Source: Tsukamurella paurometabola (GTDB lineage Bacteria > Actinomycetota > Actinomycetes > Mycobacteriales > Mycobacteriaceae). From it: a DNA stretch of 24,000 nucleotides. The position numbers and the translations under genes were made by a program. Shown here piece after piece: positions 1,977 to 16,674 of this stretch (positions are counted from its first letter, which is position 1; every line of letters begins with the position of its first letter). Location: contig NZ_LR131273.1 in NCBI RefSeq assembly GCF_900631615.1, positions 2,302,850 through 2,326,849 on the forward strand. The letters are read 5' to 3'. A model generated the notes under the pieces. The model searched no databases, was not told where the DNA came from, and saw only the letters and a program-made list of their open reading frames with translations.

Positions 1977-2624
1977 TCAGAACTCGCGGGTGTCCTCGGC
2001 ACCCCACGGGACGAACTCGGCACCGTCGGGACGCATGTCCGCGAGCCGGGCGAGGTAGACGTCCGCACCCGCGGCGGAGAGCAATGCGTCGTGGATCGGG
2101 ACGGCGGCGGTGGGCGCGACGGCGCGGAAGAAGTCGACGGTCTCGCTGATCTTCGCCCACGGTGCGTTCACCGGCAGGCCGAGCACCTCGACGCGCACGT
2201 CCTCGGGCACGTACAGCGCGTCGCCGGGGTGGTAGAAGCGGCCGATCCGCTCCTCGTCGCCGAGGAGGACGGACGTGTTGTCGATCGTCGGGATGTCCGG
2301 GTGGATCACGGCGTGCGTGCCGCCGACGCCGCGGGCGATGAGATTGCCGATGCCGTAGTCGTGGCCGGGGAGCGCCGCGATCCAGCGGCCGCCGCGCGCG
2401 GCCGCGGTGGTCGGATCGGCGAACAGCTGTGCCCCGGGGTTGGCGTCGACGAGAGCGTCGATGCGGGCGGGGTCGATGTGATCGGGGTGCTGGTGCGTCA
2501 CGACGATCGCGTCCAGACCGGTGAGCCCCTCGAACCCCTGGGAGAAGGTGCCGGGGTCGAAGAGCACCCGCGTCTCGGACATCTCCACGAGGACGCACGA
2601 ATGGCGGAAGTGGGTGAGTCGCAT
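1977..2624 (-). CDS. MBL-fold metallo-hydrolase, 215 aa
   Basis: HQHPDH (the HxHxDH zinc-binding motif) is followed by conserved His/Asp positions. I chose the ATG at 2624 (MRLTHFRHSCVLVE...) rather than the track start at 2705, because the 27 upstream codons have no family counterpart and would abut purS. Confidence 0.8.
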   Translation of the reverse strand: MRLTHFRHSCVLVEMSETRVLFDPGTFSQGFEGLTGLDAIVVTHQHPDHIDPARIDALVDANPGAQLFADPTTAAARGGRWIAALPGHDYGIGNLIARGVGGTHAVIHPDIPTIDNTSVLLGDEERIGRFYHPGDALYVPEDVRVEVLGLPVNAPWAKISETVDFFRAVAPTAAVPIHDALLSAAGADVYLARLADMRPDGAEFVPWGAEDTREF

Positions 2625-2705
2625 GCGCCCAGTATGCGCCGGTAAACTGACCCGTACAGCGCGATCGACACCCGAGAGCGCGGTCGAATCGAGAGGGAGC
2701 CGCAC

Positions 2706-2945
2706 GTGGCGCGGATTGTGGTGGACGTGATGCCGAAGGCCGAGATCCTGGACCCGCAGGGGAAGGCGATCGTGGGCGCGCTCGACCGCCTGGGCTTCGC
2801 CGGCGTCGCGGATGTGCGGCAGGGCAAGCGGTTCGAGCTCGAGGTCGAGGGCGATCTGAGCGACGACCAGCTCGAGAAGATCGCGGCCGACGTGCTCGCG
2901 AACACGGTCATCGAGGACTTCACCGTCACCCGGGTCGACGCATGA
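2706..2945 (+). CDS. purS: Phosphoribosylformylglycinamidine synthase subunit PurS
   Basis: The 79-aa protein ([18 protein letters not shown]...LANTVIEDF) matches the PurS family closely. GTG start is preceded by GAGAGGGAG. There is a 4-nt ATGA overlap with purQ. Confidence 0.9.
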
Positions 2946-3616
2946 CGCGGGTCGGCGTCATCACCTTCCCCGGCACGCTCGACGACGTCGATGCGGCGCG
3001 CGCGGTGGAGCGGGCGGGCGGCGAGGCCGTCGCGCTCTGGCACAAGGACCACGACCTGCAGGGCGTCGACGCCGTCGTCGTGCCGGGCGGCTTCTCCTAC
3101 GGCGACTACCTGCGCGCCGGCGCCATCGCCTCCCTCGCACCGGTGATGACCGAGGTCGTCGAGGCCGCGGGCAAGGGCATGCCGGTGCTCGGCATCTGCA
3201 ACGGCTTCCAGATCCTCTGCGAGGCGGGCCTGCTCCCCGGCGCGCTCGTGCGCAACGAGGGCCTGCACTTCATCTGCCGCGACGAGTGGCTGCGCGTCGA
3301 GGCCACGAACACCGCCTGGACCTCCCGCTACGAGCCGGGTGCCGAGATCCTGGTGCCACTCAAGTCGGGCGAGGGCCGCTACGTTGCCGACGAGCACACC
3401 CTCGACGAGCTCGAGGGCGAGGGGCGCGTGGCCTTCCGCTACGCCGCCGGCAATCCGAACGGCGCCATGCGCGGCATCGCGGGCATCGCCTCGGCCAACG
3501 GCCGCGTCGTGGGCCTCATGCCGCACCCGGAGCACGCCACCGAGGCTCTCACGGGCCCGTCGGACGACGGCCTGGGCATCTTCTACTCCGCGCTGGACGC
3601 GGTCCTGTCGGCCTGA
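2942..3616 (+). CDS. purQ: Phosphoribosylformylglycinamidine synthase I, glutaminase subunit PurQ
   Basis: Class-I glutamine amidotransferase signatures are present: GICNGFQ (nucleophile Cys) and MPHPE (His-Glu). The size and the position after purS both fit. Confidence 0.92.
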
Positions 3617-4893
3617 TGACGGCCGCCGCCGGAGCGACCGCCGAGGGCCTGTGCGCCTTCGTCGACGCCTCGCCGTCGCCGTTCCACGTCTGTCGGACGG
3701 TGGCCCGCCGCCTCGCCGAGGCCGGGTACACCGAGCTCGTCGAGCACGACGTGTGGCCGGGGCCCGGCAAGTACTTCGTGGTGCGCGGCGGCTCGATCAT
3801 CGCGTTCGATTCCTCGCACTGCGAGCACGGGGATCTGCCGGCGTTCCGCATCGTCGGCGGCCACACCGACAGCCCGAACCTGCGGGTGAAGCAGCACCAC
3901 GACGCGGAGTCGGCGGGTCTCGCCCAGGTGCTCCTGGAGCCCTACGGCGGCGCGTGGCTCAACTCGTGGCTCGACCGCGACCTCGGGATCTCCGGGCGGA
4001 TCGCGGTGCGCGAGGGCGGCCGGGTGGTGCACACGCTGGTGCGCATCGACGAACCGCTGCTGCGCGTGCCCCAGCTGGCGATCCACCTCTCGGAGAACCG
4101 TAAGGGCGTCGAGCTCGATCCGCAGCGGCACCTGCACGCGATCTGGGGCACCTCCGGCGCCGGCGGCTTCCTGGCGCGCGTGGCGGCCGCCGAGGGGTAC
4201 GCCGCCGAGGACGTGCTGGGCTTCGAGCTGATGACGCACGACCTGGCGCCGTCGCGCACCGTCGGCGCCGACGGTGCCCTCGTCTCCGCGCCCCGGCTCG
4301 ACAACCAGGGCACCTGCTACGCGGGCACCGAGGCGCTGCTCGCGACCGCCCCGGTCGACGGGATCGTGCCCGTGCTGGCGCTGTTCGACCACGAGGAGGT
4401 GGGCTCGGGCTCCGATCGCGGTGCCGCGTCCGACTTCCTCATCACGGTCCTGGAGCGGATCGGCCTGTCGCACAGCCTCAGCCGCGAGGACTTCCTGCGC
4501 ACCCTGAGCCTGTCCGCGGTCGCGTCCGGCGACATGGCGCACGCGACGCACCCGAACTACCCCGACCGGCACGAGCCCGCGCACCACATCGCCGTGAACG
4601 GCGGCCCGGTGCTCAAGGTGAACCAGAACCTGCGTTACGCGTCGGACTCCGACGGCGAGGCCCTGTTCGCGCTCGCCGCCGAGCAGGCCGGCGTGCCGTT
4701 GCAGCGGTACGTGCACCGCGCCGACCTGCCCTGCGGGTCGACGATCGGCCCCATCACCGCGGCCCGCACGGGCCTGACGACGGTCGACGTGGGCGCCCCG
4801 CAGCTCGCGATGCACAGCGCGCGTGAGCTCATGGGCTCCGCCGACATCGGGTACTACTCCGCGGCGCTCGCCGCCTTCCTCGCGCCCGCCTGA
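3616..4893 (+). CDS. M18-family (aspartyl) aminopeptidase, 425 aa
   Basis: [20 protein letters not shown] and other M18 blocks are present. I chose the ATG at 3616, which overlaps the purQ stop (TGATG). The upstream part of track ORF 3286..4893 is just the alternate frame of purQ. Confidence 0.85.
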
Positions 4894-4903
4894 CCCGGCT
4901 CCA

Positions 4904-5950
4904 TCAGTCCCGGAAGTCCACCAGCACCTTCCCGGACGCGGCGGAGTCGCGGGCGATGGCGAAGGCCTCCACGGCGTCGGCGGCGGGCAGCACGTGGGTC
5001 ACCACGCCGTGCACGTCCAGCGTGCCGTCGGCGAGCGCGGCGATCACGTCGTCGATCTCGTCGTTGAACCGCAGCGCGCCGCGCAGGTCCAGCTCGCGGG
5101 TGATGGCCCGCGCCGCGGGGAAGTCGATGTCGCCCGCCTGCTGCAGCCCGAGCAGCACGACGACGCCGCCGCGCGCCGCCGCGTCGACCGCGGCGTGCAG
5201 GCCGGGCACCGTGCCGGAGGACTCGATCACCACGTCCGCGTGCAGTGCGGCGATCGCGTCGGACTCCCGGGCGTCGAGCGCCGCAGCGGCGCCCAGCGTC
5301 AGCGCGCGCTCCCGGGGACCGGCCGCGATGTCCGTGGCCACGACCTCGGCGGCGCCGTGGTGCAGCGCCACCGCGATCGCGAGCAGCCCGATCGGACCCG
5401 CGCCGATCACCGCGACCCGCTTGCCCGCGACGTCGCCGGCCCGCGCGAGCCCGTGCCAGGCGACCGCGGCGGGCTCGATGAGGGCCGCGTCCCGCGGATC
5501 GATCCCGGCGGGCAGTGCACGCAGCATCCGCGTGGGCAGCGCGACGCGGCGGGCGAAGGCACCGTCGCAGTGCGGGAAGTGGGCAGCCGAACCGAGATAC
5601 GTGGACGCGGGCGCGAGGTTCGGGCGGTCCGCCGGGTACGGCACCCCGTCGACCCCGTGCGGCGTGCCGGGGTGCACGGCGACGGGCGTGCCCGCTGCCG
5701 GCCCGGAACCGTCGGCCGCGGCCCGATCGACGGTGCCCACCACCTCGTGTCCGAGCACCATGGGAGCGCGCAGGATCGACGTGCCGGCGGCGCCGTGCAA
5801 CCAGTAGTGCAGGTCGGAGCCGCAGACGCCGCCGTAGTCGATCGCGATGACGGCCTCATCGTCGGCGGGGACCGGCTCGGGGCGCTCCTCGACGCGGAGG
5901 TCGCTCGCGGCGTGGGCGACGACGGCGAGATTCACGGTGTTCTCCTTCAT
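4904..5950 (-). CDS. idnD: Zn-dependent MDR dehydrogenase, L-idonate 5-dehydrogenase-like, 348 aa
   Basis: GGVCGSDLHYW, MVLGHEVVG, GSAAHFPHCDGAF and the GAGPIG Rossmann motif align by eye along the whole length with E. coli IdnD. ATG start at 5950 (MKENTVNL). The remainder of the 1125-aa track ORF is read-through in a non-coding frame. Confidence 0.75.
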   Translation of the reverse strand: MKENTVNLAVVAHAASDLRVEERPEPVPADDEAVIAIDYGGVCGSDLHYWLHGAAGTSILRAPMVLGHEVVGTVDRAAADGSGPAAGTPVAVHPGTPHGVDGVPYPADRPNLAPASTYLGSAAHFPHCDGAFARRVALPTRMLRALPAGIDPRDAALIEPAAVAWHGLARAGDVAGKRVAVIGAGPIGLLAIAVALHHGAAEVVATDIAAGPRERALTLGAAAALDARESDAIAALHADVVIESSGTVPGLHAAVDAAARGGVVVLLGLQQAGDIDFPAARAITRELDLRGALRFNDEIDDVIAALADGTLDVHGVVTHVLPAADAVEAFAIARDSAASGKVLVDFRD

Positions 5951-6717
5951 ACGACGGCCGTCATGCCGCCGTCGACGTACAGGACCTGTCCGTTGACGAA
6001 CGCGGACGCCTCGGAGGCGAGGAAGACGAGCGGTCCGACCAGGTCCGCGACGTCGCCCCAGCGTGCGGCCGGCGTGCGGCCGGCCACCCACGCGGAGAAC
6101 TCGGCATCGTCCACGAGGGCCTGCGTCAGTTCCGTCGCGAAGTAGCCGGGGGCGATCGCGTTGGCGGTGATGCCGTGCGGCGCGAGCTCGGCGCAGAGCC
6201 CCTTGGTCAGCATGACGATGCCGCCCTTGGTCGCCGCGTAGGGCGTGATGTTCGGGCGGGCGAGCTGCGACTGCACCGAGCCGACGTTGATGATCCGGCC
6301 GCTGCCGCGCGCGATCATGCCCGCCGCGACCCGCTTCGCGAGTAGGAAGGCGCTGGTGAGGTTGGTGGCGATCAGCGCGCTCCAGTCGGCGGCCGGGAAC
6401 TCGGTGAGCGGGTGCCGGATCTGCATGCCCGCGTTGTTCACCAGGATGTCCGGGGTGCCGTGCTCGGCTTCGATCGCGGCGATCGCGGCGTCGACGGCGG
6501 CCTCGTCGGTCACGTCGAAGGCCGTGGCGTGCACGGGGTTCCCGGTCGCGATCTCCCCGGCGACTCGACGGGCCGTGTCCGCGTCGCGGCCGTGGACGAG
6601 GACGGTGGCGCCCGCCGCGGAGAGGCCCTCCGCGAGCCGTCGGCCGATGCCGCGGGTGCTGCCGGTGACGAGCGCGGTGCGGCCCGTCAGGTCGAAGGCG
6701 GAGGTGTCGCTGGGCAT
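5947..6717 (-). CDS. idnO: SDR oxidoreductase, gluconate 5-dehydrogenase-like, 256 aa
   Basis: TGSTRGIG, NNAG and YAATKGG (YxxxK) are present. The C-terminal block RTPAARWGD...FVNGQ..YVDGGM is very close to E. coli IdnO/Gno. Its stop overlaps the start of the idnD-like gene by 4 nt. Confidence 0.85.
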   Translation of the reverse strand: MPSDTSAFDLTGRTALVTGSTRGIGRRLAEGLSAAGATVLVHGRDADTARRVAGEIATGNPVHATAFDVTDEAAVDAAIAAIEAEHGTPDILVNNAGMQIRHPLTEFPAADWSALIATNLTSAFLLAKRVAAGMIARGSGRIINVGSVQSQLARPNITPYAATKGGIVMLTKGLCAELAPHGITANAIAPGYFATELTQALVDDAEFSAWVAGRTPAARWGDVADLVGPLVFLASEASAFVNGQVLYVDGGMTAVV

Positions 6718-6726
6718 GGTGGCCTT

Positions 6727-8187
6727 TCAGTGCGTGGCGGCCGGTGCGGGTGCCGCGGCGGGCGTGGACACGGCGGGGGAGGGGAAGTCGAGAGTGCTCA
6801 GCGCGGCGGTGCCGGGCACGGCGTAGCCCTCCCCGGCCTCCGCGTCCGAGACCTTGACCGCGTCGTCGGTGCGCGTGAGGTCGCGGCCCACCGTCTCGGG
6901 GACGAGGAAGGTGCTCGCGGCGGTGATGGTGCAGAGCGTGACCATGTACAGGCCCAGGACGAGCCAGTTCCCGTCGGTCACCTTGATCAGGTACGCGCCG
7001 AGCACACCGGCCACGCCGCCGGCGAGGACGGCCGAGATCTCGCGGGCCATGGCGACGCCCAGGTAGCGGTGCCGCGCGCCGAACATCTCGGGGATGAGTG
7101 CGCACTGCGGGCCGAGCATCGAGTTGACGCCCACGCCGATGCCGATCGCGATCACCGCGACCGCGACGGCGTGGTTCTGCAGGGTCAGCGCCCACCAGGC
7201 GGGCAGCGCGTAGGCGAGTAGGAACAGCGCCCCGGCGCGGTAGACGATCCGGCGGCCGAACCGGTCGGAGAGGTGCCCGGTGAACGGGACGGAGAACACG
7301 CCGATGAGGGAGCCGAGCGTGACACCCCAGGTGAGCACTCCCTTGTCGGCGCCCGGGCCGGTGACGCTGACGAAGAACGACAGCGCCAGTGCCTGGAACA
7401 TGTACGAGCCGCCGTTCTCCGCCATGCGCAGGCCGATGCCGACGAGCACGCCCGGGAAGCCGTGCCGGAACAATTCGCGCACGGGCTTGTCCGCCACCTG
7501 CTCCTGCTTCTCCAGCTCGACGAAGGTCGGAGTCTCCTGCAGCTTCATCCGGATCGCGACGGCGAGCAGGATCAGCAGGAAGGAGGAGAGGAACGGCACG
7601 CGCCAGCCCCAACTGAGCATGGCGTCCTCGGGCAGCATGCTGATGAGGGTGAACACCAGCGCGGCGAGCAGCGTGCCGGCCTGGATGCCGATGAACGGCA
7701 GCGCGGAGAAGAATCCGCGGCGTTTCACCGGCGCGTACTCGGCCATGAGCACCGTCGAGCCGGCCTGCTCGGCGCCGGCGCCGAAGCCCTGGAGCAGCCG
7801 CAGCGTCACCAGCATGATGGGCGCCCAGATCCCGATCGACTCGTAGGTGGGCAGCAGGCCGATCAGGGTGGAGGCGCCGCCCATCAGCATGATCGTGATG
7901 ACCAGTACCGCCTTGCGGCCGACCTTGTCGCCGAGGCGGCCGAAGAACAGGCCGCCGAACGGCCGGGCTGCGAAGCCGACGCCGAACGTCGCGAAGGCGG
8001 CCACCGTCGCCATCGCCGGATCGCCCTGCGGGAAGAACAGCACGTTGAAGATCAGGGCCGTGGACAGGCCGTACAGCGCGAAGTCGAAGTACTCGAGGGC
8101 GCTGCCGATGCTGGAGGCCAGGGTCGCGCGCTTGAGGTTCGCGGCGTACTCGGGGTCCTGCGCGGGCGAGGTGGTGGTGGTCGACAA
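6727..8187 (-). CDS. MFS transporter, metabolite:H+ symporter (MHS) family, 486 aa
   Basis: N-terminal EYFDFALYG and GGLFFGRLGDKVGRK are MHS signatures. The protein has a roughly 12-TM profile. It lies 9 nt upstream of the idnO-like gene, in the same orientation. Confidence 0.85.
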   Translation of the reverse strand: MSTTTTSPAQDPEYAANLKRATLASSIGSALEYFDFALYGLSTALIFNVLFFPQGDPAMATVAAFATFGVGFAARPFGGLFFGRLGDKVGRKAVLVITIMLMGGASTLIGLLPTYESIGIWAPIMLVTLRLLQGFGAGAEQAGSTVLMAEYAPVKRRGFFSALPFIGIQAGTLLAALVFTLISMLPEDAMLSWGWRVPFLSSFLLILLAVAIRMKLQETPTFVELEKQEQVADKPVRELFRHGFPGVLVGIGLRMAENGGSYMFQALALSFFVSVTGPGADKGVLTWGVTLGSLIGVFSVPFTGHLSDRFGRRIVYRAGALFLLAYALPAWWALTLQNHAVAVAVIAIGIGVGVNSMLGPQCALIPEMFGARHRYLGVAMAREISAVLAGGVAGVLGAYLIKVTDGNWLVLGLYMVTLCTITAASTFLVPETVGRDLTRTDDAVKVSDAEAGEGYAVPGTAALSTLDFPSPAVSTPAAAPAPAATH

Positions 8188-8295
8188 CGGCGTCTCCTTC
8201 GAACCATCGGCTCGTGACCGGCGTCACATCCGATGCCTCGACGCTAACACTGGATCGAACGGTGTACAACCAGCTGAACAAACTCGGGGATTGCG

Positions 8296-8966
8296 ACTAC
8301 CTTCTAGTCGCGATCAGCAGCGCGGTGATCGGCGCGAAGCGGTGGGCCGATCGCTACCGCGTGTAGGGCGTGACGGGGATGGAGGACAGGTCCGGCCGTC
8401 TCCATCGTGCCCAGGGCAGACGAGCCGCTGGCGCGAACGCCGGGGCATCGCGCTCCGGTTTCACCGGCGGTGAGGCCCGACGCGGATCTGCGTCTGCCGC
8501 GTTCGACCGTCGCGGCGGTACTGCGCCCCTGCCGGATGCCGCTGCTCCGGCACCTCGATCAAGCCACCGGACTACTCGTTCGGGCGCCTCGGCCGACCGC
8601 TACGAGCACAGCGCCCCAGGTGATCTCATATCCACGCTGACATCAAGAAGCTCGGAAGGATCCCGGACGGAGGAGGGCGCCGCGAGCTCGGTCGAACCGG
8701 CGGCAATCGTTACAACAAGAAGCATGGTCGCGGCTACAGGTACCTGCACCACGCGGTCGACGATCACACTCGACTGGCCTACCGCACTCTCGGCGCCGAG
8801 TGTGCTGCGCCGAGCTCTACCCGGGCGACGAGGCCCGCGCCGATCTACCCGGCCTGGCTGAATTACTACGATCACCACCGACCATATTTCCGGCATTGGC
8901 GGCCAGACCCCGATCGAACGGCTACGCGTTCACAACGTCCCCAGCCTCAACAACGAGTCGACGTGA
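8296..8966 (+). pseudogene. IS481-family transposase relic (N-terminally truncated, multiply frameshifted, catalytic core deleted)
   Basis: Pieces of an IS481-type transposase can be read across alternating frames. These are AKRWADRYRV*GVTGMEDRSGRLH (in-frame TAG at 8364-8366), LPRSTVAAVLRPCRMPLLRHLDQATG, RYEHSAPGDLI, HADIKKLGRIPDGGG...GYRYLHHAVDDHTRLAY, WLNYYDHHRP and GIGGQTPIERLRVHNV...*. The frame order is 0,1,0,2,0. The TDNG and NGKxERF blocks (second Asp and Glu of the DDE triad) are absent. Confidence 0.7.
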
Positions 8967-9023
8967 GCACCGAACACCGCCCGACAGGTGTCCCACAACC
9001 GACCCTTTCTGGGACAGTGCCGC

Positions 9024-9767
9024 CTAGCGGTTCTGCTCGGGGCGGGTGAGGAAGATGGGTTTGCCGAAGGTGGTGAGGGTGTCGTCGGTGGCGTCGGTGC
9101 TGATGGCGACGGTGGCGTAGGTGCGGACTTGGACGCCGCCGATGCAGTTGTCGACGGCGATGCGGATGTCGCGGGACATGACTTGGGCGTTGGGGCCGAC
9201 GACGGCCTTCTTGGCGTAGGGGATGTCTTTGGTGGTGCCGGGCTTGAGGATTCCGGAGATGTTGCCGGTCTCGGTGACGGTGTCCGAGAGGGTGCCGGAG
9301 AGGCTGCCGGTTCCGGTGCCGGAGACGCTGCCGCCACCTTGCCCGCCGCCGGAGCCGCCCTGTCCTTGTCCGGTGACGGTGCCGGACGCGCTGACTGTCG
9401 GCGTGATCGAGGCGGTGGTCGCGTTCGACAGTGACCCGCCAAGGGTCAAGCTGTCGGCGGTGACAGCGCAGCCAATTTGTGTACCCGTGGTCAGTGTTGC
9501 CGACTTAATTCGGCTGGTGGGCTTACGCTTTGGGTCGTTGGGGTGTTCGGCTTCGATCTTCGCTTCGCCGCCTATGGAGCTGAAGCCTTCGAAGCTCTGG
9601 GGCGATCGGTTGAGCGGCGGGACGGAGTCGAGCTTCTCTCCGAATTTGCTGACGGTGACTTTCCATCCGTCGCGGGTGATCAGTTCGCGACTGGTGTCGG
9701 CGAACTCGCCCTCGCGGATCTGCCCGGGGACCGGGACGCGCATCCGCGGTGCGGGCGGCGGGGTCAC
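9024..9767 (-). CDS. MspA-family mycomembrane porin (the annotated ORF lacks its signal peptide; the in-frame signal-like region continues to about 9938)
   Basis: By-eye alignment to M. smegmatis MspA: RDGWKVTVSKFGEKLDSVPPLNRSPQSFEGFSSIGGEAKI vs DRTLTVQQWDTFLNGVFPLDRNRLTREWFHSGRAKYI. TGTQIG matches LGYQIG. The C-terminal GGVQVRTYATVAISTDATDDTLTTFGKP matches GGVLLRPFARLIASTGDSVTTYGEP. The only canonical start in frame is GTG at 9767. Upstream in-frame codons encode RTSAASKTLVALCAAAAAATLAAGPVIAAPAP. Confidence 0.7.
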   Translation of the reverse strand: MTPPPAPRMRVPVPGQIREGEFADTSRELITRDGWKVTVSKFGEKLDSVPPLNRSPQSFEGFSSIGGEAKIEAEHPNDPKRKPTSRIKSATLTTGTQIGCAVTADSLTLGGSLSNATTASITPTVSASGTVTGQGQGGSGGGQGGGSVSGTGTGSLSGTLSDTVTETGNISGILKPGTTKDIPYAKKAVVGPNAQVMSRDIRIAVDNCIGGVQVRTYATVAISTDATDDTLTTFGKPIFLTRPEQNR

Positions 9768-9992
9768 CGCCGCCGGGGCGGCGGGCTTCGCGGCCGCCGC
9801 CGCGGGAGTCGGCTTGGGTGCCGGCGCCGGTGCGGCGATGACGGGGCCGGCGGCGAGCGTGGCCGCTGCGGCGGCGGCGCAGAGCGCGACGAGTGTCTTC
9901 GATGCCGCAGACGTACGGGTGCCACAACGGCCTACGCCTCATACCAGGAAGCAAAACAAACCGGAGACACCGGAAAGGCTGTCACAAAGGGC

Positions 9993-10214
9993 GTGGGTAG
10001 CCTTGCTGGTGCCGCTACAGGTGCCGCAATCGGCACCATGCTCTTCCCCGGTGTGGGAACACTGGCGGGCGCGGGTATCGGCGCTGTGGGGGCGGTTATC
10101 GGATCAGGGGTGGGAACCACCCTCGTTGACAAGGGGTACGATACCGCACTAAGTGCCGGTAAGGCTGTGGGCAAAGGGATTGGAAAAGCGGCATCTAAAC
10201 TGAAGTTCTGGTAG
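9993..10214 (+). CDS. Small glycine-zipper membrane protein with a Lys-rich amphipathic tail (about 73 aa; start uncertain)
   Basis: The frame is open from far upstream, where it is antisense to the porin, but the composition changes at about 9942. The first plausible starts are GTG 9993 (GGAAAGG lies 15 nt upstream) or ATG 10038. The sequence GVGSLAGAATGAAIGTMLFPGVGTLAGAGIGAVGAVIGSGVG holds at least seven overlapping GxxxG units. The tail is DKGYDTALSAGKAVGKGIGKAASKLKFW. TAG stop at 10212-10214. Confidence 0.45.
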   Translation: MGSLAGAATGAAIGTMLFPGVGTLAGAGIGAVGAVIGSGVGTTLVDKGYDTALSAGKAVGKGIGKAASKLKFW

Positions 10215-10236
10215 CCCGAGAAGAAATGGCGCGATC

Positions 10237-11055
10237 ATGAATTCAATTGCAAGTCGATGGCCGGCCGAATGGCCGAAATGGAAGATGGTCGGAGCATGGT
10301 TTGTTGCCGCCGTTCTTACAGTAGGCCTGACGGTCTTATTACTTGCGTCGTGCGCCAAATGGATCACCAGTATAAGTTCGCTAAAGGGGCGTGAGATAGT
10401 CGTAAATCTATCTGGGGCAAGCGTGCTTGCTGCGGGATTATGCATATCTCTTTCTGCGCTCATGAACATTCGAATCCGACGACGTGGTATCGCCAGGGTC
10501 ACCCCTGGTGGTAGCCCTACCTCAGCCAGGGTGGAGATTCAGTCGGCAATCTCCGTAACTCGCGTGTTCCCGATGGCTGTCGCCGTGTTTGCGTCGCTTG
10601 CCGGAGCTCTGGGGGTTGCCGCATCGATCGGGAACTGGACAGTCAAGGGGGGGTTGTATGTGTTGTTCTGGGCAACGTGGACTGCGGTCGGCGTTTATAG
10701 CATCAGGAAGATTGCCAAGACCAGTAATCCAGAACTCTTTTTCACGCTCAATGACATTTCCGTTGGTAGTCGGCGCGTTAGATGGGATGACATAGCAGAT
10801 GTGAGGCCGGCGCTTCGAGGCGCGTACCCTGTGATCGAGGCGGTTTGGCATCGCGCAGTAGGCGGCGGCGGCTACGGATCAAAGGAGGGGGTCCTAACCA
10901 TACACCCCGTTCGCTATCATTTGGACAGCTACACGATGTTGAGTGCGATCCGCCTTCTGTCACAGAGTGCTGAAACCAGGGAGCGAGCTATTAACTCTCC
11001 AGACTATGCCACCCTCCTCTTTAGTCGTGATACGACCCCGCCGGTCAGCGTGTAA
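10237..11055 (+). CDS. Hypothetical polytopic membrane protein, 272 aa (4 predicted TM helices plus a roughly 110-aa soluble C-terminal domain)
   Basis: ATG at 10237, 22 nt after the glycine-zipper ORF. Hydrophobic segments lie at about aa 17-38, 56-76, 108-131 and 136-156. The C-terminal part (LFFTLNDISVGSRRVRWDDIADV...GVLTIHPVRY) is reminiscent of bacterial PH-like domains that follow TM hairpins. About 50-57% GC by hand count, and I recognise no family. Confidence 0.6.
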   Translation: MNSIASRWPAEWPKWKMVGAWFVAAVLTVGLTVLLLASCAKWITSISSLKGREIVVNLSGASVLAAGLCISLSALMNIRIRRRGIARVTPGGSPTSARVEIQSAISVTRVFPMAVAVFASLAGALGVAASIGNWTVKGGLYVLFWATWTAVGVYSIRKIAKTSNPELFFTLNDISVGSRRVRWDDIADVRPALRGAYPVIEAVWHRAVGGGGYGSKEGVLTIHPVRYHLDSYTMLSAIRLLSQSAETRERAINSPDYATLLFSRDTTPPVSV

Positions 11056-11090
11056 GCGATTACACCTACCTAACAAGATTGGAAACAGGA

Positions 11091-11354
11091 ATGGCAAGGG
11101 GAACTGAACAAAAATACTCAGCAGAGGAATACAAGCAGGAGTGGAAACTGAATGCTCTCATGCTGACGCTAGGAGTTCTGGCGATCACTGGCGCGACGAT
11201 TGCGTTATTCAACTTAGACGAATTTTCTGCACGGATTGCCTACGGTTTCGTCCTGCCTGTTTCTGTGGTTGCTATATATAACGGGGGTAAATGGCTGTTT
11301 CGCAGCGTACTATGGTTCCGAAGCAATAGACCCCGCGCGTCGCTGCAGTCATAG
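11091..11354 (+). CDS. Hypothetical small two-TM membrane protein, about 87 aa
   Basis: ATG at 11091 is preceded by GGAAACAGGA; the track uses TTG at 11079. Two hydrophobic segments are present (LNALMLTLGVLAITGATIALF and IAYGFVLPVSVVAIY). About 42-50% GC. The TAG stop at 11352-11354 sits inside a hairpin. Confidence 0.5.
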   Translation: MARGTEQKYSAEEYKQEWKLNALMLTLGVLAITGATIALFNLDEFSARIAYGFVLPVSVVAIYNGGKWLFRSVLWFRSNRPRASLQS

Positions 11355-11367
11355 CATGAGTGCAGCG
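11341..11367 (+). terminator. Hairpin at the end of the low-GC cassette (possible intrinsic terminator without a U-tract)
   Basis: CGCTGCAGTCAT-agc-ATGAGTGCAGCG gives 11 of 12 paired positions with one G/G mismatch. It spans the stop codon of the 87-aa ORF. No T-run follows, so function is uncertain. Confidence 0.3.
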
Positions 11368-11380
11368 TCATTACGGTCCG

Positions 11381-11455
11381 TCTCAGCAAAGCATCGCGAA
11401 CGATCGTTCGTGAAACACCTTGGCCGCTGACCTGTTCGCCCAGGTCGAAGATGTA
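11381..11455 (-). pseudogene. Possible fragment of a GntR-type winged-helix regulator (HTH recognition helix only)
   Basis: The minus-strand reading YIFDLGEQVSGQGVSRTIVRDALLR contains GVSRTIVRDAL, close to the GntR-family signature GVSRtpVReAL. There is no start codon, the similarity stops on both sides, and no effector domain follows. Confidence 0.25.
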
Positions 11456-11653
11456 ACGCGACCCGTGTCCGCAACAACGTCACGCACTCCCTCGTTCTCG
11501 ATACAGTCGAGTGCATGCGAGCCGGATACGGAGAGGTTCCACCCGTGATCGACACCTCGAAGCTCTGCACGACGCACTCACTGGGGCCGGCTGCGACGAG
11601 GTGGAGGGACCGTCGCGGCTCCCGAGTGAACCAGGAGTCACCAGGATCGGTTA

Positions 11654-13138
11654 GTGTCCCGAATCATGACCACCTCACCTGCGGCACCGTCGGACCCGGA
11701 GGAGGGTGAGCACCTCACCCGAGCCCTGAGCAACCGCCACATCCAGCTCATCGCCATCGGCGGCGCCATCGGCACCGGCCTGTTCATGGGTTCCGGCAAG
11801 ACGATCTCGGTCGCCGGGCCGTCGGTGATCCTCGTGTACATGGTGATCGGCTTCATGCTGTACTTCGTCATGCGCGCGATGGGCGAGCTGCTGCTCAGCC
11901 GCACCGGCTACCGCAACTTCTCCGACTTCGCGGGCGACATCCTCGGCCCGTGGGCCGCGCATTTCACCGGATGGACCTACTGGTTCTGCTGGGTCGTCAC
12001 CGCCGTCGCCGACGTGGTGGTCATCGCGTCGGTCTACATCACCTTCTGGGCGAAGGACATTCCGCCGTGGATCCCCGCGGTCGCCGTGATCGTGCTGCTC
12101 ATCGGCCTCAACCTGCCGACGGTCCGCGCGTTCGGTGAGACCGAGTTCTGGTTCGCCATGATCAAGATCGTCGCCATCGTGGCGCTCATCGTCGTGGGCG
12201 CGGTGCTCATCATCACCGGCTTCGAGCACGACGGTGCCCGCGCCTCGCTCGCCAACCTCTGGGAGCACGGCGGCGTGTTCCCCCAGGGGTTCATGGGCTT
12301 CGTCGCCGGCTTCCAGATCGCCGTGTTCGCGTTCGTCGGCATCGAACTCGTGGGCACCGCGGCCGCCGAGACCAAGAACCCCGAGAAGAACCTGCCCCGC
12401 GCGATCAACGCCATCCCCATCCGTATCCTGCTGTTCTACGTCGGCTCGCTGGTGATCCTCATGTCCGTGGTGCCGTGGGACCGGTTCAGCAAGGACGAGT
12501 CGCCGTTCGTCATGCTCTTCACCCTCGCCGGGCTGGGCGCCGCCGCCCACCTCGTGAACGCGGTCGTCCTCACCTCGGCCATGTCGTCGGCGAACTCGGG
12601 CATCTACTCCACCTCGCGCATGGTGTACGGCCTCGCCACCGAGGGCGACGCACCGAAGGTCTTCGCCAAGCTCTCGGGCCGCAAGGTGCCCCAGAACGCG
12701 CTGTTCCTCACCGGCGTGATGCTGCTGTCGTCGGTCGTACTGCTCGCCTTCGGGCTGGACAAGTCGGCGGGCTTCACCGTGGTCACCACGGTCTCGTCGC
12801 TGTGCTTCATGTTCGTCTGGACGATCATCCTGGCCAGCTACCTCGTCTACCGCTCCCGGCGTCCTCAGGCGCACGCCGAGAGCGCCTTCAAGATGCCGCT
12901 CGGCACGATCATGCCGTGGGTGGTCTTCGCCTTCTTCCTGTTCCTGCTGTGGGCGTTCACGCGCGAGACGGACACGCTGCAGGCGATGCTCGTGACGCCG
13001 ATCTGGTTCCTCATCGTGGGTGTCGCCTATCTCGTGTTGCGCCGCAACCCCGAGCACCTCGCCGCCCGGCAGGCGTTCGCCGCGCGGGTCCAGGAGGAGA
13101 AGCGGGCCGCGGCGCAGTGGCGCGCCGCGCAGCACTGA
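11654..13138 (+). CDS. APC-superfamily amino-acid permease (AnsP/CycA-like), 494 aa
   Basis: The N-terminal block NRHIQLIAIGGAIGTGLFMGSG, with FAFVGIELVGTAAAETKNP and later blocks, aligns by eye along the whole length with E. coli AnsP. GTG at 11654 has AGGA 6 nt upstream. An in-frame ATG at 11666 is an alternative start. Confidence 0.85.
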   Translation: MSRIMTTSPAAPSDPEEGEHLTRALSNRHIQLIAIGGAIGTGLFMGSGKTISVAGPSVILVYMVIGFMLYFVMRAMGELLLSRTGYRNFSDFAGDILGPWAAHFTGWTYWFCWVVTAVADVVVIASVYITFWAKDIPPWIPAVAVIVLLIGLNLPTVRAFGETEFWFAMIKIVAIVALIVVGAVLIITGFEHDGARASLANLWEHGGVFPQGFMGFVAGFQIAVFAFVGIELVGTAAAETKNPEKNLPRAINAIPIRILLFYVGSLVILMSVVPWDRFSKDESPFVMLFTLAGLGAAAHLVNAVVLTSAMSSANSGIYSTSRMVYGLATEGDAPKVFAKLSGRKVPQNALFLTGVMLLSSVVLLAFGLDKSAGFTVVTTVSSLCFMFVWTIILASYLVYRSRRPQAHAESAFKMPLGTIMPWVVFAFFLFLLWAFTRETDTLQAMLVTPIWFLIVGVAYLVLRRNPEHLAARQAFAARVQEEKRAAAQWRAAQH

Positions 13139-14356: not shown

Positions 14357-14544
14357 GACCGCAGTATCGCGCCGGGGTCCGACAAGTGTTCTCCGCCCGA
14401 CGGGTCGGAACCCGACGACCCGGCCGGAGGAGGTCGTCCCGCGTCCTGATCGGTAGCTGACGTCACGAAACGGAGGACGGGACCGTCGATCGTGACTAGC
14501 ATCGTGGAATGGAGCCAGCAGATCGTTCCGGTGCTCCTGCGACG

Positions 14545-15636
14545 ATGAGGGCAGTGCAGTTGGTCGCCCACGGCGGCCTGGACAACCTCGTCTACCGCGA
14601 GGACGTACCCGTTCCCAGCCCCGCCCCCGGCGAGGTGCTCATCGACGTCCACGCGTGCGGCATGAACAACACCGACGTGTGGGTCCGCGAGGGCGCCTAC
14701 GGCACCGAGACCGACCCCGGGTCGGTGTCCACGTGGCGGCGCGGCCGCTCGACCCTGACCTTTCCGCGGATCCAGGGCGCCGACATCGTCGGGCGGATCG
14801 CCGCCGTCGGCGAGGGGGTCGACGCGGGCCGGGTGGGCCAGCGCGTGATGGTGGACTTCAGCCTCTACAACCGTCCCGAGGGGGACGAGAGCCTGGCCGA
14901 CATCGACTACATCGGCCACGGTCGCGACGGCGGCTACGCCGAATTCGTCACCGTCCCCGCGGAGAACGCCCACGCCGTGGTCACCGACATGGCGGACGCC
15001 GAGCTCGCGACCTTCTGCTGCGCCTACCTCACCGCGGAGCAGATGCTCGACCGGGCGCGGCTGGCCGGCGGGGAGAACGTCGTCGTGACCGGGGCTTCCG
15101 GCGGCGTCGGCTCGGCGATCGTCCAGCTGGCCCGGGTGCGCGGTGCGGTCCCCTACGCCATCACGAGCCGGGGCAAGGAACAGGCGCTGCTCGACATCGG
15201 GGCGGAGCGGGCCGTCCTGCGCGGCGAGGGGGACCTCGTCGGCGAGGTCGAGCGGGTGGTCGACGGTCCCGTGGACGTGGTGGCCGATCTCGTCGCGGGG
15301 TCGATGTTCAACGACCTGCTGCGGATACTGCGCCCGGAGGGCCGCTACACGACCGCCGGCGCCATCGGCGGTGCCGTGGTTCAGCTCGACCTGCGGACGA
15401 TGTACTTGAAACAGCTCGAGCTGCACGGTTCCTCGCAGGGCACCCGCACGGCGTTCCGCCGTCTGGTCGGCTACATCGAGGCGGGTGCCGTCCGACCGCT
15501 GCTGCACGGCACCTACCGGCTGTCGCGGCTCCGGGACGCCCAGCGCGAGTTCATGGCGAAGACCTACGTGGGGAACCTCGTGGTCGTGCCCGACCGGCAC
15601 TGGGCGGACGTGGGGGCGCCCCATGCTGCGGCGTGA
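14545..15636 (+). CDS. MDR-superfamily NAD(P)-dependent oxidoreductase, zinc-independent (quinone-oxidoreductase-like)
   Basis: MRAVQL...GEVLIDVHACGMNNTD, GADIVG in place of the catalytic GHE, and VTGASGGVGS as the cofactor loop. ATG at 14545 is preferred by family N-terminus; an in-frame ATG at 14509 is the alternative. Confidence 0.8.
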   Translation: MRAVQLVAHGGLDNLVYREDVPVPSPAPGEVLIDVHACGMNNTDVWVREGAYGTETDPGSVSTWRRGRSTLTFPRIQGADIVGRIAAVGEGVDAGRVGQRVMVDFSLYNRPEGDESLADIDYIGHGRDGGYAEFVTVPAENAHAVVTDMADAELATFCCAYLTAEQMLDRARLAGGENVVVTGASGGVGSAIVQLARVRGAVPYAITSRGKEQALLDIGAERAVLRGEGDLVGEVERVVDGPVDVVADLVAGSMFNDLLRILRPEGRYTTAGAIGGAVVQLDLRTMYLKQLELHGSSQGTRTAFRRLVGYIEAGAVRPLLHGTYRLSRLRDAQREFMAKTYVGNLVVVPDRHWADVGAPHAAA

Positions 15637-16660
15637 GTGCTCGCTCGAGCTGATCGACACCCAGTCGGGTGGCGACGTCAGCCGGATCGTCGTCGCGGGC
15701 ATCGGCCCGATCCCGGGAACGACGGTGCGCGCGAAGGCCCGCTACCTGCAGGATGAGGGCGACGGGCTGCGTCGGCTGCTGCTCTCGGAGCCCTACGGCG
15801 ACCCGGCGATGTCGGTGGACCTCATCGTGGAGCCGAGCCGCCCCGAGGCGCAGGCCGGGTACATCATCATGGAGGCCATGGGCTACCCGATGTACTCGGG
15901 CTCCAACACGATCTGCACGGCGACCGCGCTGCTGCAGAGCGGCGCGATTCCGGCGCGCGAGGGGGCGCAGAACGTGGTCCTGGAGTCGCCGGCCGGGCTG
16001 GCGCGGATCGAGGCCGTGGTCCACGACGGCCGCGTGGAGTCGATCACGACGCAGGGCGAGCCCGCGTACGTCGCCCGGGAGGGGCTCTCCGTCGAGGTCC
16101 CGTACTACGGCACCGTCGGGTTCGACCTGGTGTGGAGCGGCGCGTACTACGCGATGATCGATGCCGGCGCCCACGACTTCACGCTCGCGTCCGAGGAGCA
16201 GATCGCGCTGACCGCGTTCGGCGACGCCTTCGTTCGGGCGGCGCGTCCGGACCTGCTGCAGGAACATCCCGACCTGGGCGACGTGGGCCCGTTGTCGTTC
16301 GCCCACTTCACCGGTGGCGTCCGCACGATCGGCGACGGGCGGTTCGAGTCGCGTTCGGCGACGTACGTCCACCCCGGAGTGCTGTGCCGCAGCCCGACGG
16401 GCACGGGCACATCCGCGCGCCTCGCGCTGATGCACCGGCGCGGCGAGATCACCGAGGGGCAGTCGCTGGAGACGATCTCCCCGCGCGGCAATCGGTTCGT
16501 CGGCACGGTCCGGTCGTCGGGGAGGGTGGGCGACTACCCGGCGTTGCACTCCGCCATCACGGGTCGAGCGCGCCTGATCGCGCACTCTCGGCTGGTGGTG
16601 GACCTGGAGGATCCGCTCGTCGACGCATCCGACTTGGAGAACCTGCTCACAGTCGACTGA
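15623..16660 (+). CDS. Proline racemase / hydroxyproline epimerase / dehydratase superfamily protein, divergent Ser/Thr variant, 345 aa
   Basis: Superfamily blocks are recognisable: GYPMYSGSNTIC aligns with GYLGMCGHGTIG, and CRSPTGTGTSARLA aligns with DRSPCGTGTSAKLA. Both catalytic Cys positions are replaced (Ser and Thr). The ATG at 15623 overlaps the upstream gene by 14 nt. Confidence 0.8.
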   Translation: MLRRECSLELIDTQSGGDVSRIVVAGIGPIPGTTVRAKARYLQDEGDGLRRLLLSEPYGDPAMSVDLIVEPSRPEAQAGYIIMEAMGYPMYSGSNTICTATALLQSGAIPAREGAQNVVLESPAGLARIEAVVHDGRVESITTQGEPAYVAREGLSVEVPYYGTVGFDLVWSGAYYAMIDAGAHDFTLASEEQIALTAFGDAFVRAARPDLLQEHPDLGDVGPLSFAHFTGGVRTIGDGRFESRSATYVHPGVLCRSPTGTGTSARLALMHRRGEITEGQSLETISPRGNRFVGTVRSSGRVGDYPALHSAITGRARLIAHSRLVVDLEDPLVDASDLENLLTVD

Positions 16661-16674
16661 AGGGGCTGGCGCTG

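Follow-up and report, generated by a model that had tools for sequence, protein, structure and literature searches.

A probable orphan toxin-end and immunity cassette with a resolvase remnant in the chromosome of Tsukamurella paurometabola

Polymorphic toxin systems swap their C-terminal ends, along with the matching immunity genes, in the form of cassettes (PMC3482391; PMC3150448). The orphan modules of systems for contact-dependent growth inhibition (CDI; cdiA-CT/cdiI) and of Rhs-CT systems consist of a 5′-truncated toxin piece with one or more immunity genes downstream; the guanine-cytosine (GC) content of such a module is below that of its host, the module moves between genomes, and its C-terminal region recurs behind more than one N-terminal part (Poole et al., 2011, PMC3150448; Zhang et al., 2012, PMC3482391). 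We observed the same properties in a window of the T. paurometabola chromosome (the whole stretch analysed here, 24,000 nucleotides, NCBI contig NZ_LR131273.1, positions 2,302,850 to 2,326,849), where they characterise a block that extends from window position 9921 to ~11605. This block is a foreign, mobile DNA fragment. It is probably an orphan polymorphic toxin-end/immunity cassette with the remnant of a resolvase, its toxic and protective roles being presumed from comparison with related loci. The CDI and Rhs orphans differ from it in being arrayed behind a resident full-length toxin gene, in having a parent with a recognised trafficking domain (Rhs, CdiA, LXG, WXG), and in being accompanied by insertion sequence (IS) elements or homologous repeats, where the present cassette has a resolvase and a res-like site; the host here is a mycolic-acid actinobacterium. 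The features of the block, which include three open reading frames (ORFs), are as follows.

9921 to 10214, + strand: ORF1, the 5′-truncated last 97 codons of a polymorphic-toxin-like protein, with the entire glycine zipper and the conserved end ...GIGKAASKLKFW
10237 to 11055, + strand: ORF2, 272 amino acids, candidate immunity protein with four predicted transmembrane (TM) helices and a soluble tail of ~110 amino acids (hydropathy)
11091 to 11354, + strand: ORF3, 87 amino acids, candidate second immunity subunit with two predicted TM helices (hydropathy)
11398 to 11514, no strand assigned: conserved non-coding res-like site of ~120 nucleotides, core at 11427-11483 (core sequence CTGACCTGTTCGCCCAGGTCG...CCGTGTCCGCAACAACGTC), directly upstream of the resolvase start
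11515 to 11600, + strand: decayed 5′ stub of a small serine recombinase (resolvase) gene, ATG at 11515, ~29 codons, one-nucleotide deletion at the catalytic-serine codon

TspA/TsaI ranks among the glycine-zipper, membrane-depolarising toxins of type VIIb secretion systems (T7SSb) that are countered by membrane-protein immunity. In Staphylococcus aureus, the glycine-zipper C-terminus of EsxX causes depolarisation whichever side of the membrane it acts from; to be protected against it from the outside, cells require the polytopic membrane proteins ExiC and ExiD together, and ExiC/ExiD occur as orphans in genomes without the toxin (PMC12744356). EsxX is the closest experimental precedent for the toxin/immunity action that we propose here. 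As in EsxX/ExiCD (PMC12744356) and TelE (PMC10434224), a C-terminal glycine-zipper region, which in those systems belongs to a larger exported protein, is followed by genes for polytopic membrane proteins (four and two TM helices in the present case, with a presumed immunity role), and where EsxX requires two membrane proteins together, ORF2 and ORF3 always travel as a pair.

A prediction made earlier from the sequence of the window had described three co-directional ORFs separated by 22 nucleotides (10214 to 10237) and 35 nucleotides (11055 to 11091), and these are present as claimed. Hydropathy likewise backs the membrane segments that it had proposed: ORF1 shows a glycine-zipper segment, ORF2 four helices with a soluble tail behind them, and ORF3 a pair of helices. 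ORF2 is an exact match of VDR39185.1, which is labelled T. paurometabola. The three products could not be placed in any characterised family at the time, and no match above the curated threshold was found for them in Pfam, NCBIfam or PADLOC. The ORF2 family is very rare, with three clusters only in word-indexed searches of 5.8 billion clusters, run with the single sequence and then with a profile. Neither 72,556 plasmids (tblastn) nor viral contigs contained a match to ORF2.

Where the original prediction failed is in its view of ORF1 as a small, self-contained membrane-active protein. ORF1 is what remains of the C-terminus of a large protein after 5′ truncation, and it lacks its own start: there is no start codon at or near 9942, and the first one, GTG 9993, is already inside the zipper. 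The cassette is also carried by short public contigs, namely the Logan assemblies L001 and L002 and two further contigs, L003 and L004. In the latter two, the reading frame continues upstream of ORF1 as ...WYNPTK...LGKAG.ALTTASRGLPLVG/ATTAYASYQ..., with the slash marking window position 9921. That the frame is open upstream in the window is due only to its position antisense to the signal-peptide region, rich in GC, of a porin gene, and nothing there is common to the other copies. The glycine zipper itself, GAATGAAIGTMLFPGVGTLAGAGIGAVGAVIGSGVG, is legible directly in the sequence as a repeated GxxxG pattern; hydropathy places the hydrophobic segment at residues 24-70, and the match of ORF1 to the Pfam family Gly-zipper_Omp reaches 21.8 bits, under the 25-bit cut-off.

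When the ORF1-family alignment was used in a word-indexed search for homologues, the low complexity of the glycine zipper obscured the result, and P0027 and P0072 emerged only from an exhaustive search of 1.84 billion representative proteins, which also yielded P0009. These three true relatives match ORF1 up to a common C-terminus, ...KLKFW, and this C-terminal region sits on three different N-terminal parts in proteins of 625 (P0027), 397 (P0072) and 190 (P0009) amino acids. P0027 is a chromosomal protein of Tsukamurella pulmonis and the full-length homologue of ORF1. It comprises N-terminal hydrophobic segments, a long disordered linker rich in Pro, Gly, Gln and Thr, and a C-terminal region of ~230 amino acids that aligns with the upstream sequence of L004; the window keeps only the last 97 residues of a region of this type. 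An assignment of the N-terminal hydrophobic segments of P0027 to a PrsW peptidase domain was considered and dropped, as Pfam gave it no support. P0072 has no relatives among the sequences of the Protein Data Bank (PDB), and P0027 has no match on the 72,556 plasmids (tblastn). The P0072-type gene also occurs in split form in two assemblies, at 9461-10619 of L127 and 6166-7324 of L128, where it gives a 281-amino-acid product and an 82-amino-acid glycine-zipper ORF and is identical to P0072 up to residue 263. This is another case of toxin-gene decay; upstream of the locus are a gene for a PaaX regulator and two genes without annotation (245 and 117 amino acids).

These relatives bear on an account close to the original prediction, in which a stand-alone bacteriocin of 73 amino acids, translated from GTG 9993, would be exported and membrane-active, with ORF2 and ORF3 conferring self-immunity. 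A peptide of that length would hold the entire glycine zipper, a gene caller annotated the same 73-amino-acid ORF on the identical contig L001, and a TTG occupies the homologous position in L003. Coding homology nevertheless continues upstream of GTG 9993 in L003, L004, P0027, P0072 and P0009, which places this codon inside a longer conserved protein. Direct reading of the sequence revealed no signal peptide, double-glycine leader or convincing, well-spaced ribosome-binding site, and the list of ORFs in the window includes no export genes nearby. We therefore regard a stand-alone bacteriocin as improbable.

The T. pulmonis locus shows the trio in combination with a full-length first gene. The gene of P0084, a protein of 257 amino acids, begins 12 nucleotides after that of P0027, and P0084 is 23% identical to full-length ORF2 (E 6e-16), the conserved parts including an N-terminal MN..QWP.EW and a tail PVRY.LDS. 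The membrane immunity proteins of CDI ionophore toxins diverge fast, to ~30% identity within a group (PMC11630599), and the 23% identity of ORF2 would match such divergence. The ORF3 homologue of T. pulmonis is an uncalled ORF of 91 amino acids (L086, 12677-12952) with 42% identity over 50 amino acids (E 4e-7). ORF3 thus follows ORF2 in L003, L004 and T. pulmonis, and the two travel together in all copies. Downstream of the P0072 gene lies a different protein with three TM helices. The GC profile of the T. pulmonis locus is a counterpart of that in the window: the GC content of the large gene is 0.70-0.76 in its 5′ part and 0.63-0.66 in its 3′ part, falls to 0.50-0.57 in the two small genes and recovers immediately afterwards.

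A second type of locus connects the trio with an established toxin/immunity pair. It was found on L103, a metagenome contig, by a scan for a 19-nucleotide core of the conserved non-coding element downstream of ORF3. The scan gave 27 matches; the extended element was present in L103 only, and the rest are chance matches. L103 encodes a protein of at least 669 amino acids (translated 4799-6913, − strand) with a WHH nuclease toxin domain at its C-terminus (PF14414, 49.7 bits; also Colicin-DNase). Downstream of its gene come a SUKH-1 immunity gene (PF09346, 29 bits) and, after that, the conserved res-like element, and the toxin/immunity part is GC-poor (0.55). The motif GAPSWAYLV..E...GRR is common to P0027 (residues 309-327) and the L103 protein. 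Since P0027 and L103 share an N-terminal motif and a downstream element, and L103 carries a curated toxin/immunity pair, the glycine-zipper trio bears the signature of a polymorphic toxin. In its fuller form, GAPSWAYLV(A/G)E....(A/T)GRR, the motif consists of a short run of hydrophobic residues and then arginines, and immediately precedes the variable region in both proteins; it could be a processing or demarcation site, like VENN in CdiA. Beyond the res-like element, at 2604-4100, L103 holds an IS110-family transposase fragment and a 130-amino-acid ORF without a Pfam match, which, on a rough reading of its sequence, could be a second orphan immunity gene.

Taken by features, variable C-terminal regions on a common N-terminal part are seen in P0027 (glycine-zipper end) and L103 (WHH end; n = 2). 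Known or candidate immunity genes that co-vary with them lie directly downstream, i.e., the ORF2/ORF3 homologues after P0027, SUKH after WHH and the 3-TM protein after P0072, and 5′-truncated orphan cassettes are found in the window (cut at 9921) and in L003 (cut just after the resolvase stop). A recognisable N-terminal trafficking or secretion domain was not found in P0027, P0072 or P0009. It could be argued that the three products form a non-antagonistic membrane complex, for example in envelope stress handling, which is mere cargo on mobile DNA. At threshold, the products match no family of toxins, immunity proteins or defence proteins, and glycine zippers occur in many harmless membrane proteins. 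The tail of ORF2 gives a faint bacterial pleckstrin homology (PH) domain signal, namely a match to bPH_6 of 14.6 bits that is below the 22-bit cut-off and covers residues 176-193 only, and UniRef labels the T. pulmonis homologue 'PH domain-containing protein'. Pfam finds no bPH match in P0084. Such a complex would leave unexplained why one type of C-terminal region has been joined to several N-terminal parts, why a motif and a downstream site are shared with the WHH/SUKH locus, and why the first gene is repeatedly broken beside persisting downstream genes, and we consider it rather unlikely.

The toxin end was also compared with colicin-type pores. Among all PDB sequences, with E up to 10, the sole match of the ORF1-family profile is the pore-forming domain of pyocin S5 (residues 395-486, E 0.025, 17.5 bits), and the alignment covers the region leading into and including the hydrophobic hairpin. 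For a further comparison, eight colicin-type pore domains from annotated plasmids were aligned and matched to the ORF1-family profile with hhalign. Pfam Colicin has no match in the ORFs, P0027, P0072 or P0009. Colicins Ia, E1 and K and pyocin S5 have a C-terminal helical region that ends in a hydrophobic hairpin and an adjacent small membrane immunity protein (3-4 TM helices), an arrangement that the present system may share; they differ in that their immunity genes are usually on the opposite strand, and the hairpin here is far richer in glycine. Homology of the toxin end to colicin pore domains is thus possible but unproven.

The copies of the cassette differ in their state of decay. No difference from the window is seen in L001 and L002. 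For L004, identity over window positions 9921-11521 amounts to 98.6%, with a different left flank; for L003, it is 80.5% over 9921-11383, in another arrangement beside an intact resolvase gene. The state of each gene is as follows.

Window: toxin piece truncated at 9921; ORF2 intact; ORF3 intact
L003: toxin piece truncated just after the resolvase stop; ORF2 frameshifted; ORF3 intact
L004: toxin piece with an in-frame stop and an 8-bp duplication; ORF2 intact; ORF3 intact

The lesions of L004 are an in-frame stop at 433-435 and an 8-bp tandem duplication (GGGTATCG) at ~660-675, inside the glycine zipper. This pattern, with the toxin damaged in three of three copies, ORF3 intact in all three and ORF2 in two, fits an orphan module as judged from the sequences. 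In comparison of the window with L003, the ratio of nonsynonymous to synonymous substitution rates (dN/dS) is 0.145 for ORF1, 0.15-0.29 for ORF2 and 0.22 for ORF3, values that for all three ORFs mostly reflect pre-insertion history. Because dN/dS is low (0.15-0.29), the three ORFs evolved as protein-coding sequence, and the purifying selection on which the original prediction had hinged is indeed present.

The block is bounded on either side by an interrupted gene (that of the toxin and that of the resolvase), the stub of the latter carries a frameshift, ORF1 is without a start, and no promoter-like site was found in a scan. The entire block might accordingly be dead cargo, a non-functional remnant whose ORFs are neither expressed nor selected in this genome. 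ORF2 and ORF3 are intact, however, and 99-100% conserved between the window and L004 apart from one in-frame 3-bp deletion in ORF2 of L004; dN/dS is low, if mostly as a legacy of the time before insertion, and the scan relied on the sigma-70 consensus, to which actinobacteria are ill-suited. Dead cargo is, in our judgement, very improbable.

At the right edge of the block, the original prediction had seen a decayed regulator-like fragment. Decayed it is, but it is the 5′ stub of a serine resolvase gene together with the site upstream of that gene: window positions 11399-11600 are 92% identical in DNA sequence to L003 435-637, which is the upstream region and start of an intact resolvase gene, and the homology ends after GGCTGCGACGAG. 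The intact L003 resolvase matches PF00239 (148.6 bits) and, at its C-terminus, HTH_7 (24.8 bits), and it shares ~77% identity with resolvases encoded by small plasmids of Mycobacterium, Arthrobacter and Kocuria. The same two domains and a conserved site of ~120 nucleotides directly upstream are characteristic of Tn3/gamma-delta-type and plasmid multimer-resolution resolvases, and the present resolvase has its relatives on actinobacterial plasmids; the window holds neither a transposase nor terminal inverted repeats to go with it.

The core of the res-like site is ~90% conserved in every copy, while ORF2 falls to 23% identity (T. pulmonis). In the window, L003, L004 and T. pulmonis it is located downstream of ORF3, and in L103 downstream of the SUKH gene; it is also found upstream of the resolvase gene in L003, and a related sequence overlaps a recombinase start on a Pseudonocardia plasmid. 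The site occurs once in the window, with 0 occurrences expected by chance. In the window and in L003, the conserved element ends ~30 nucleotides before the resolvase ATG. Reading by eye, we noted the dyad motifs AACGATCGTT, GACCTG-N6-CAGGTC and GTAACG-N19-CGTCAC. No Rfam family matches the element and its RNA folding z-scores (-1.3 and -1.7) indicate no significant fold, so it was treated as a DNA site and not as an RNA. That it encodes an antisense peptide, 'VTLLRTRV', is unlikely, given a one-nucleotide deletion inside it in T. pulmonis. From its position and the short dyad motifs, we infer that the element is a res-type recombination site. A related element also stands alone, without an adjacent resolvase gene, at 5001-5127 of L117 (Pseudonocardia autotrophica plasmid pPA12743CP), flanked on one side by an MFS transporter/mercury-resistance gene cluster and on the other by a tyrosine recombinase gene. 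L001 and L002, which are independent assemblies, both end at window position 11465, inside the most conserved part of the site, which suggests a branch in the assembly graph, i.e., a second, diverging copy of the site in the genome.

Toxin-antitoxin pairs sit beside res sites in Tn3-family transposons. The cassette consistently adjoins a res-like site and a resolvase gene, the latter with its close relatives on small plasmids, and could by the same logic be an addiction (toxin-antitoxin-like) module in which a membrane-damaging peptide and a membrane antidote stabilise a resolvase-bearing plasmid or transposon. The full-length gene product does not look like an addiction toxin, having 625 amino acids with N-terminal hydrophobic segments and a long disordered linker. 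In addition, the sister locus L103 carries a classical interbacterial WHH/SUKH pair, and neither P0027 nor ORF2 has a match on the 72,556 plasmids. An addiction module is for these reasons an explanation to which we give little credence.

In L003, two directly repeated copies of the site flank the resolvase gene and the cassette, which could therefore be excised as a circle. In T. pulmonis and L103, unlike Tn3/gamma-delta-type resolvase systems, the site persists without a resolvase gene directly after the toxin/immunity pairs. A more far-reaching idea is that the res-like site serves as a docking site at toxin loci of mycolate actinobacteria, where the small serine resolvase would load and unload toxin-end/immunity cassettes in an integron-like manner, and that the toxin end is a very distant, glycine-rich relative, in Gram-positive mycolata, of colicin-type pores. 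The first part would be consistent with the direct repeats of L003, with the presence of the site after two unrelated toxin/immunity pairs and with the ~90% conservation of its core; the idea as a whole is speculative and we think it doubtful.

Acquired orphan immunity genes in association with a recombinase are reportedly also found in the rAID islands of Bacteroidales (said to have been described by Ross et al. in 2019), which combine them with conserved flanking repeats and site-specific recombination. These islands resemble the present locus in the pairing of acquired orphan immunity with a recombinase, but they use a tyrosine recombinase and hold long immunity arrays against type VI secretion system effectors, whereas the present locus consists of a single cassette with a serine resolvase and a retained toxin fragment. 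Orphan immunity related to rAID islands has been the subject of further work (PMC10470768; PMC12247911).

The foreign nature of the block is evident from its composition. The abrupt drop in GC content that had been claimed for this interval is borne out by sliding windows: the GC content of 9921-11600 is 0.557, compared with a mean of 0.719 for non-overlapping 1680-nucleotide windows (standard deviation 0.020, minimum 0.656), which corresponds to z = -8.2. In 300-nucleotide sliding windows, GC is 0.72-0.75 at 9600-10049 and 0.50-0.57 at 10050-11549, and is back at 0.63-0.67 from 11400-11849; outside the block, the rest of the 24-kb window ranges from 0.66 to 0.76. GC at third codon positions (GC3) is 0.58 in ORF1, 0.58 in ORF2 and 0.53 in ORF3, and 0.92-0.96 in five neighbouring genes, including those for the permease, dinB and the major facilitator superfamily (MFS) transporter.

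The edges of the block had been placed at 9942 and 11580, and homology moves them to 9920/9921 on the left and to 11601-11609 on the right. On the left, the homology of both L003 and L004 to the window begins exactly at 9921, and further left these two contigs keep matching each other and not the window. The extent of the block, 9921 to ~11605, follows from these homology limits and from collinearity with Tsukamurella ocularis from 11610 onwards. No terminal inverted repeats, direct repeats or target-site duplication were found around the block in a repeat search. The neighbouring features are as follows.

8340 to 8940, no strand assigned: IS481-family transposase relic, context outside the cassette (~70-75% DNA identity to IS481 transposase genes of actinobacterial plasmids, partial coverage)
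9024 to 9920, − strand: MspA-family porin gene without start codon and promoter (PF09203, 139.8 bits for 9024-9767)
11601 to 11609, no strand assigned: right junction between foreign block and native DNA (L003 homology stops at ~11600 and T. ocularis collinearity resumes at 11610)
11654 to 13138, + strand: native amino-acid permease gene, synteny anchor (PF00324, 388.7 bits; protein 96% identical to that of T. ocularis)

The original prediction had suggested a check for synteny in relatives without an interval of 8.3-11.6 kb. T. ocularis, the one comparator species, indeed lacks the block, but the gap is larger than that interval and takes in the idnD/idnO-like genes: ~100 nucleotides link the counterparts of window positions 4897 and 11610 in T. 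ocularis, and 4898-11609 is absent. This 6.7-kb stretch holds the idnD/idnO-like genes, the MFS transporter gene, the IS481 relic, the MspA porin gene and the cassette. The low-GC block is thus only a small part of the accessory region, the greater part of which has a native-like GC content. Horizontal acquisition of the block, as originally proposed, is strongly supported, since it has been found in three or more further DNA contexts and is absent from the closest available species representative. Two other stretches of the window, 14388-16673 and 477-1974, are likewise without T. ocularis alignment; in the former, a gene for a zinc-type alcohol dehydrogenase/quinone reductase-like protein (14509-15636) overlaps with an ORF of 391 amino acids (15485-16660). 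The 1125-amino-acid open frame at 4904-8281 on the − strand is an artefact of stop-poor, GC-rich sequence that runs across real genes (dehydrogenases; antisense to the MFS transporter gene).

The porin gene with a missing start and the IS481 relic, both noted at the left edge in the original prediction, are real, as judged by the PF09203 match and by DNA identity to IS481 transposase genes, respectively. Within the relic, no intact ORF was found, and the ORF at 8370-8861 has no Pfam match. The signal-peptide frame of the porin (..RTSAASKTLVALCAAAAAATLAAGPVIAAPAP..) runs to the junction at 9920 and then meets TGA; reading the sequence directly, we found no ATG, GTG or TTG before GTG 9767. As this frame has no start codon before the junction, the porin gene is probably inactivated, and the strain may lack one porin whose start and promoter were lost through the insertion. 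GC3 of the porin gene is 0.85, below the 0.92-0.96 of the surrounding genes.

The suggestion that the locus resembles a toxin or bacteriocin with its immunity genes is upheld as the best-supported explanation, on account of the trio beside a full-length gene in T. pulmonis and the link to the WHH/SUKH pair of L103; the part that fell is the toxin itself, as ORF1 is a mere fragment. Several observations weigh against an orphan toxin-end/immunity cassette. The polymorphism argument rests on one shared motif in two proteins (P0027 and L103). In Pfam, P0027, P0072 and P0009 match a glycine zipper only, with no LXG, WXG100, Rhs, PrsW or other trafficking domain, and the zipper is compositionally biased, most of its database matches being unrelated (e.g., tape-measure-like proteins and peptidases). 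The hhalign comparison with the eight colicin pore domains gave the same register at a probability of only 10% (E 3e-3). AlphaFold models have too low a confidence to be used, with a predicted local distance difference test score (pLDDT) of 42.1 for ORF2 (four-sequence alignment) and of 41.5 for P0009, which was modelled as all-helical and could not serve for fold comparison. ORF2 is frameshifted in L003, the module in the window does not stand behind a resident full-length toxin gene as classical orphan arrays do, and the promoter/terminator scan of the locus found nothing promoter-like, albeit with the sigma-70 consensus only. The T7SSb toxins TspA, EsxX and TelE also differ in carrying an LXG domain, which Pfam does not find in P0027, P0072 or P0009, and share no detectable sequence relationship with them. 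A soluble cytoplasmic immunity pair of the ExiAB type, as in the EsxX system, is not evident here, and ORF2 and ORF3 match no known immunity family.

Assuming that the block is such a cassette, its history and action might be as follows. A mobile fragment from a donor of ~55% GC would have entered the chromosome of Tsukamurella, where an MspA-type porin gene lost its start to it, with the resolvase stub marking the vehicle that carried it (a plasmid or transposon-like element). In a producer cell, the intact parent protein would be exported, and the glycine-zipper hairpin of the toxin would insert into the cytoplasmic membrane of the target cell and dissipate the membrane potential. ORF2 and ORF3 together would form the cognate immunity complex, catching the toxin hairpin within or at the membrane. 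In the window, ORF1 is cut from the N-terminal export part and is for that reason probably no working toxin, the stump being in all probability inert, whereas ORF2 and ORF3 would likely be selected for immunity against the intact toxin of rival strains.

What is new here is a set of undescribed protein families in a known kind of bacterial-warfare leftover. The locus also illustrates that a neat 'three-gene operon' may open with a 'gene' that is a mere stump of a larger one. The toxins that mycolic-acid actinobacteria (Tsukamurella, Gordonia, Rhodococcus, Mycobacterium and relatives) use against other bacteria are poorly charted, and the locus offers a candidate pore-forming toxin end (...KLKFW), a candidate two-protein membrane immunity pair and a GAPSWAYLV parent family that apparently swaps its toxic ends. 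The link between the resolvase and its site raises a testable idea on how such cassettes move. If our interpretation is correct, the logic of EsxX/ExiCD, by which two membrane proteins neutralise a glycine-zipper toxin from the outside, would reach a distant phylum, and the GAPSWAYLV motif and the res-like core would be simple markers for finding more loci of this kind.

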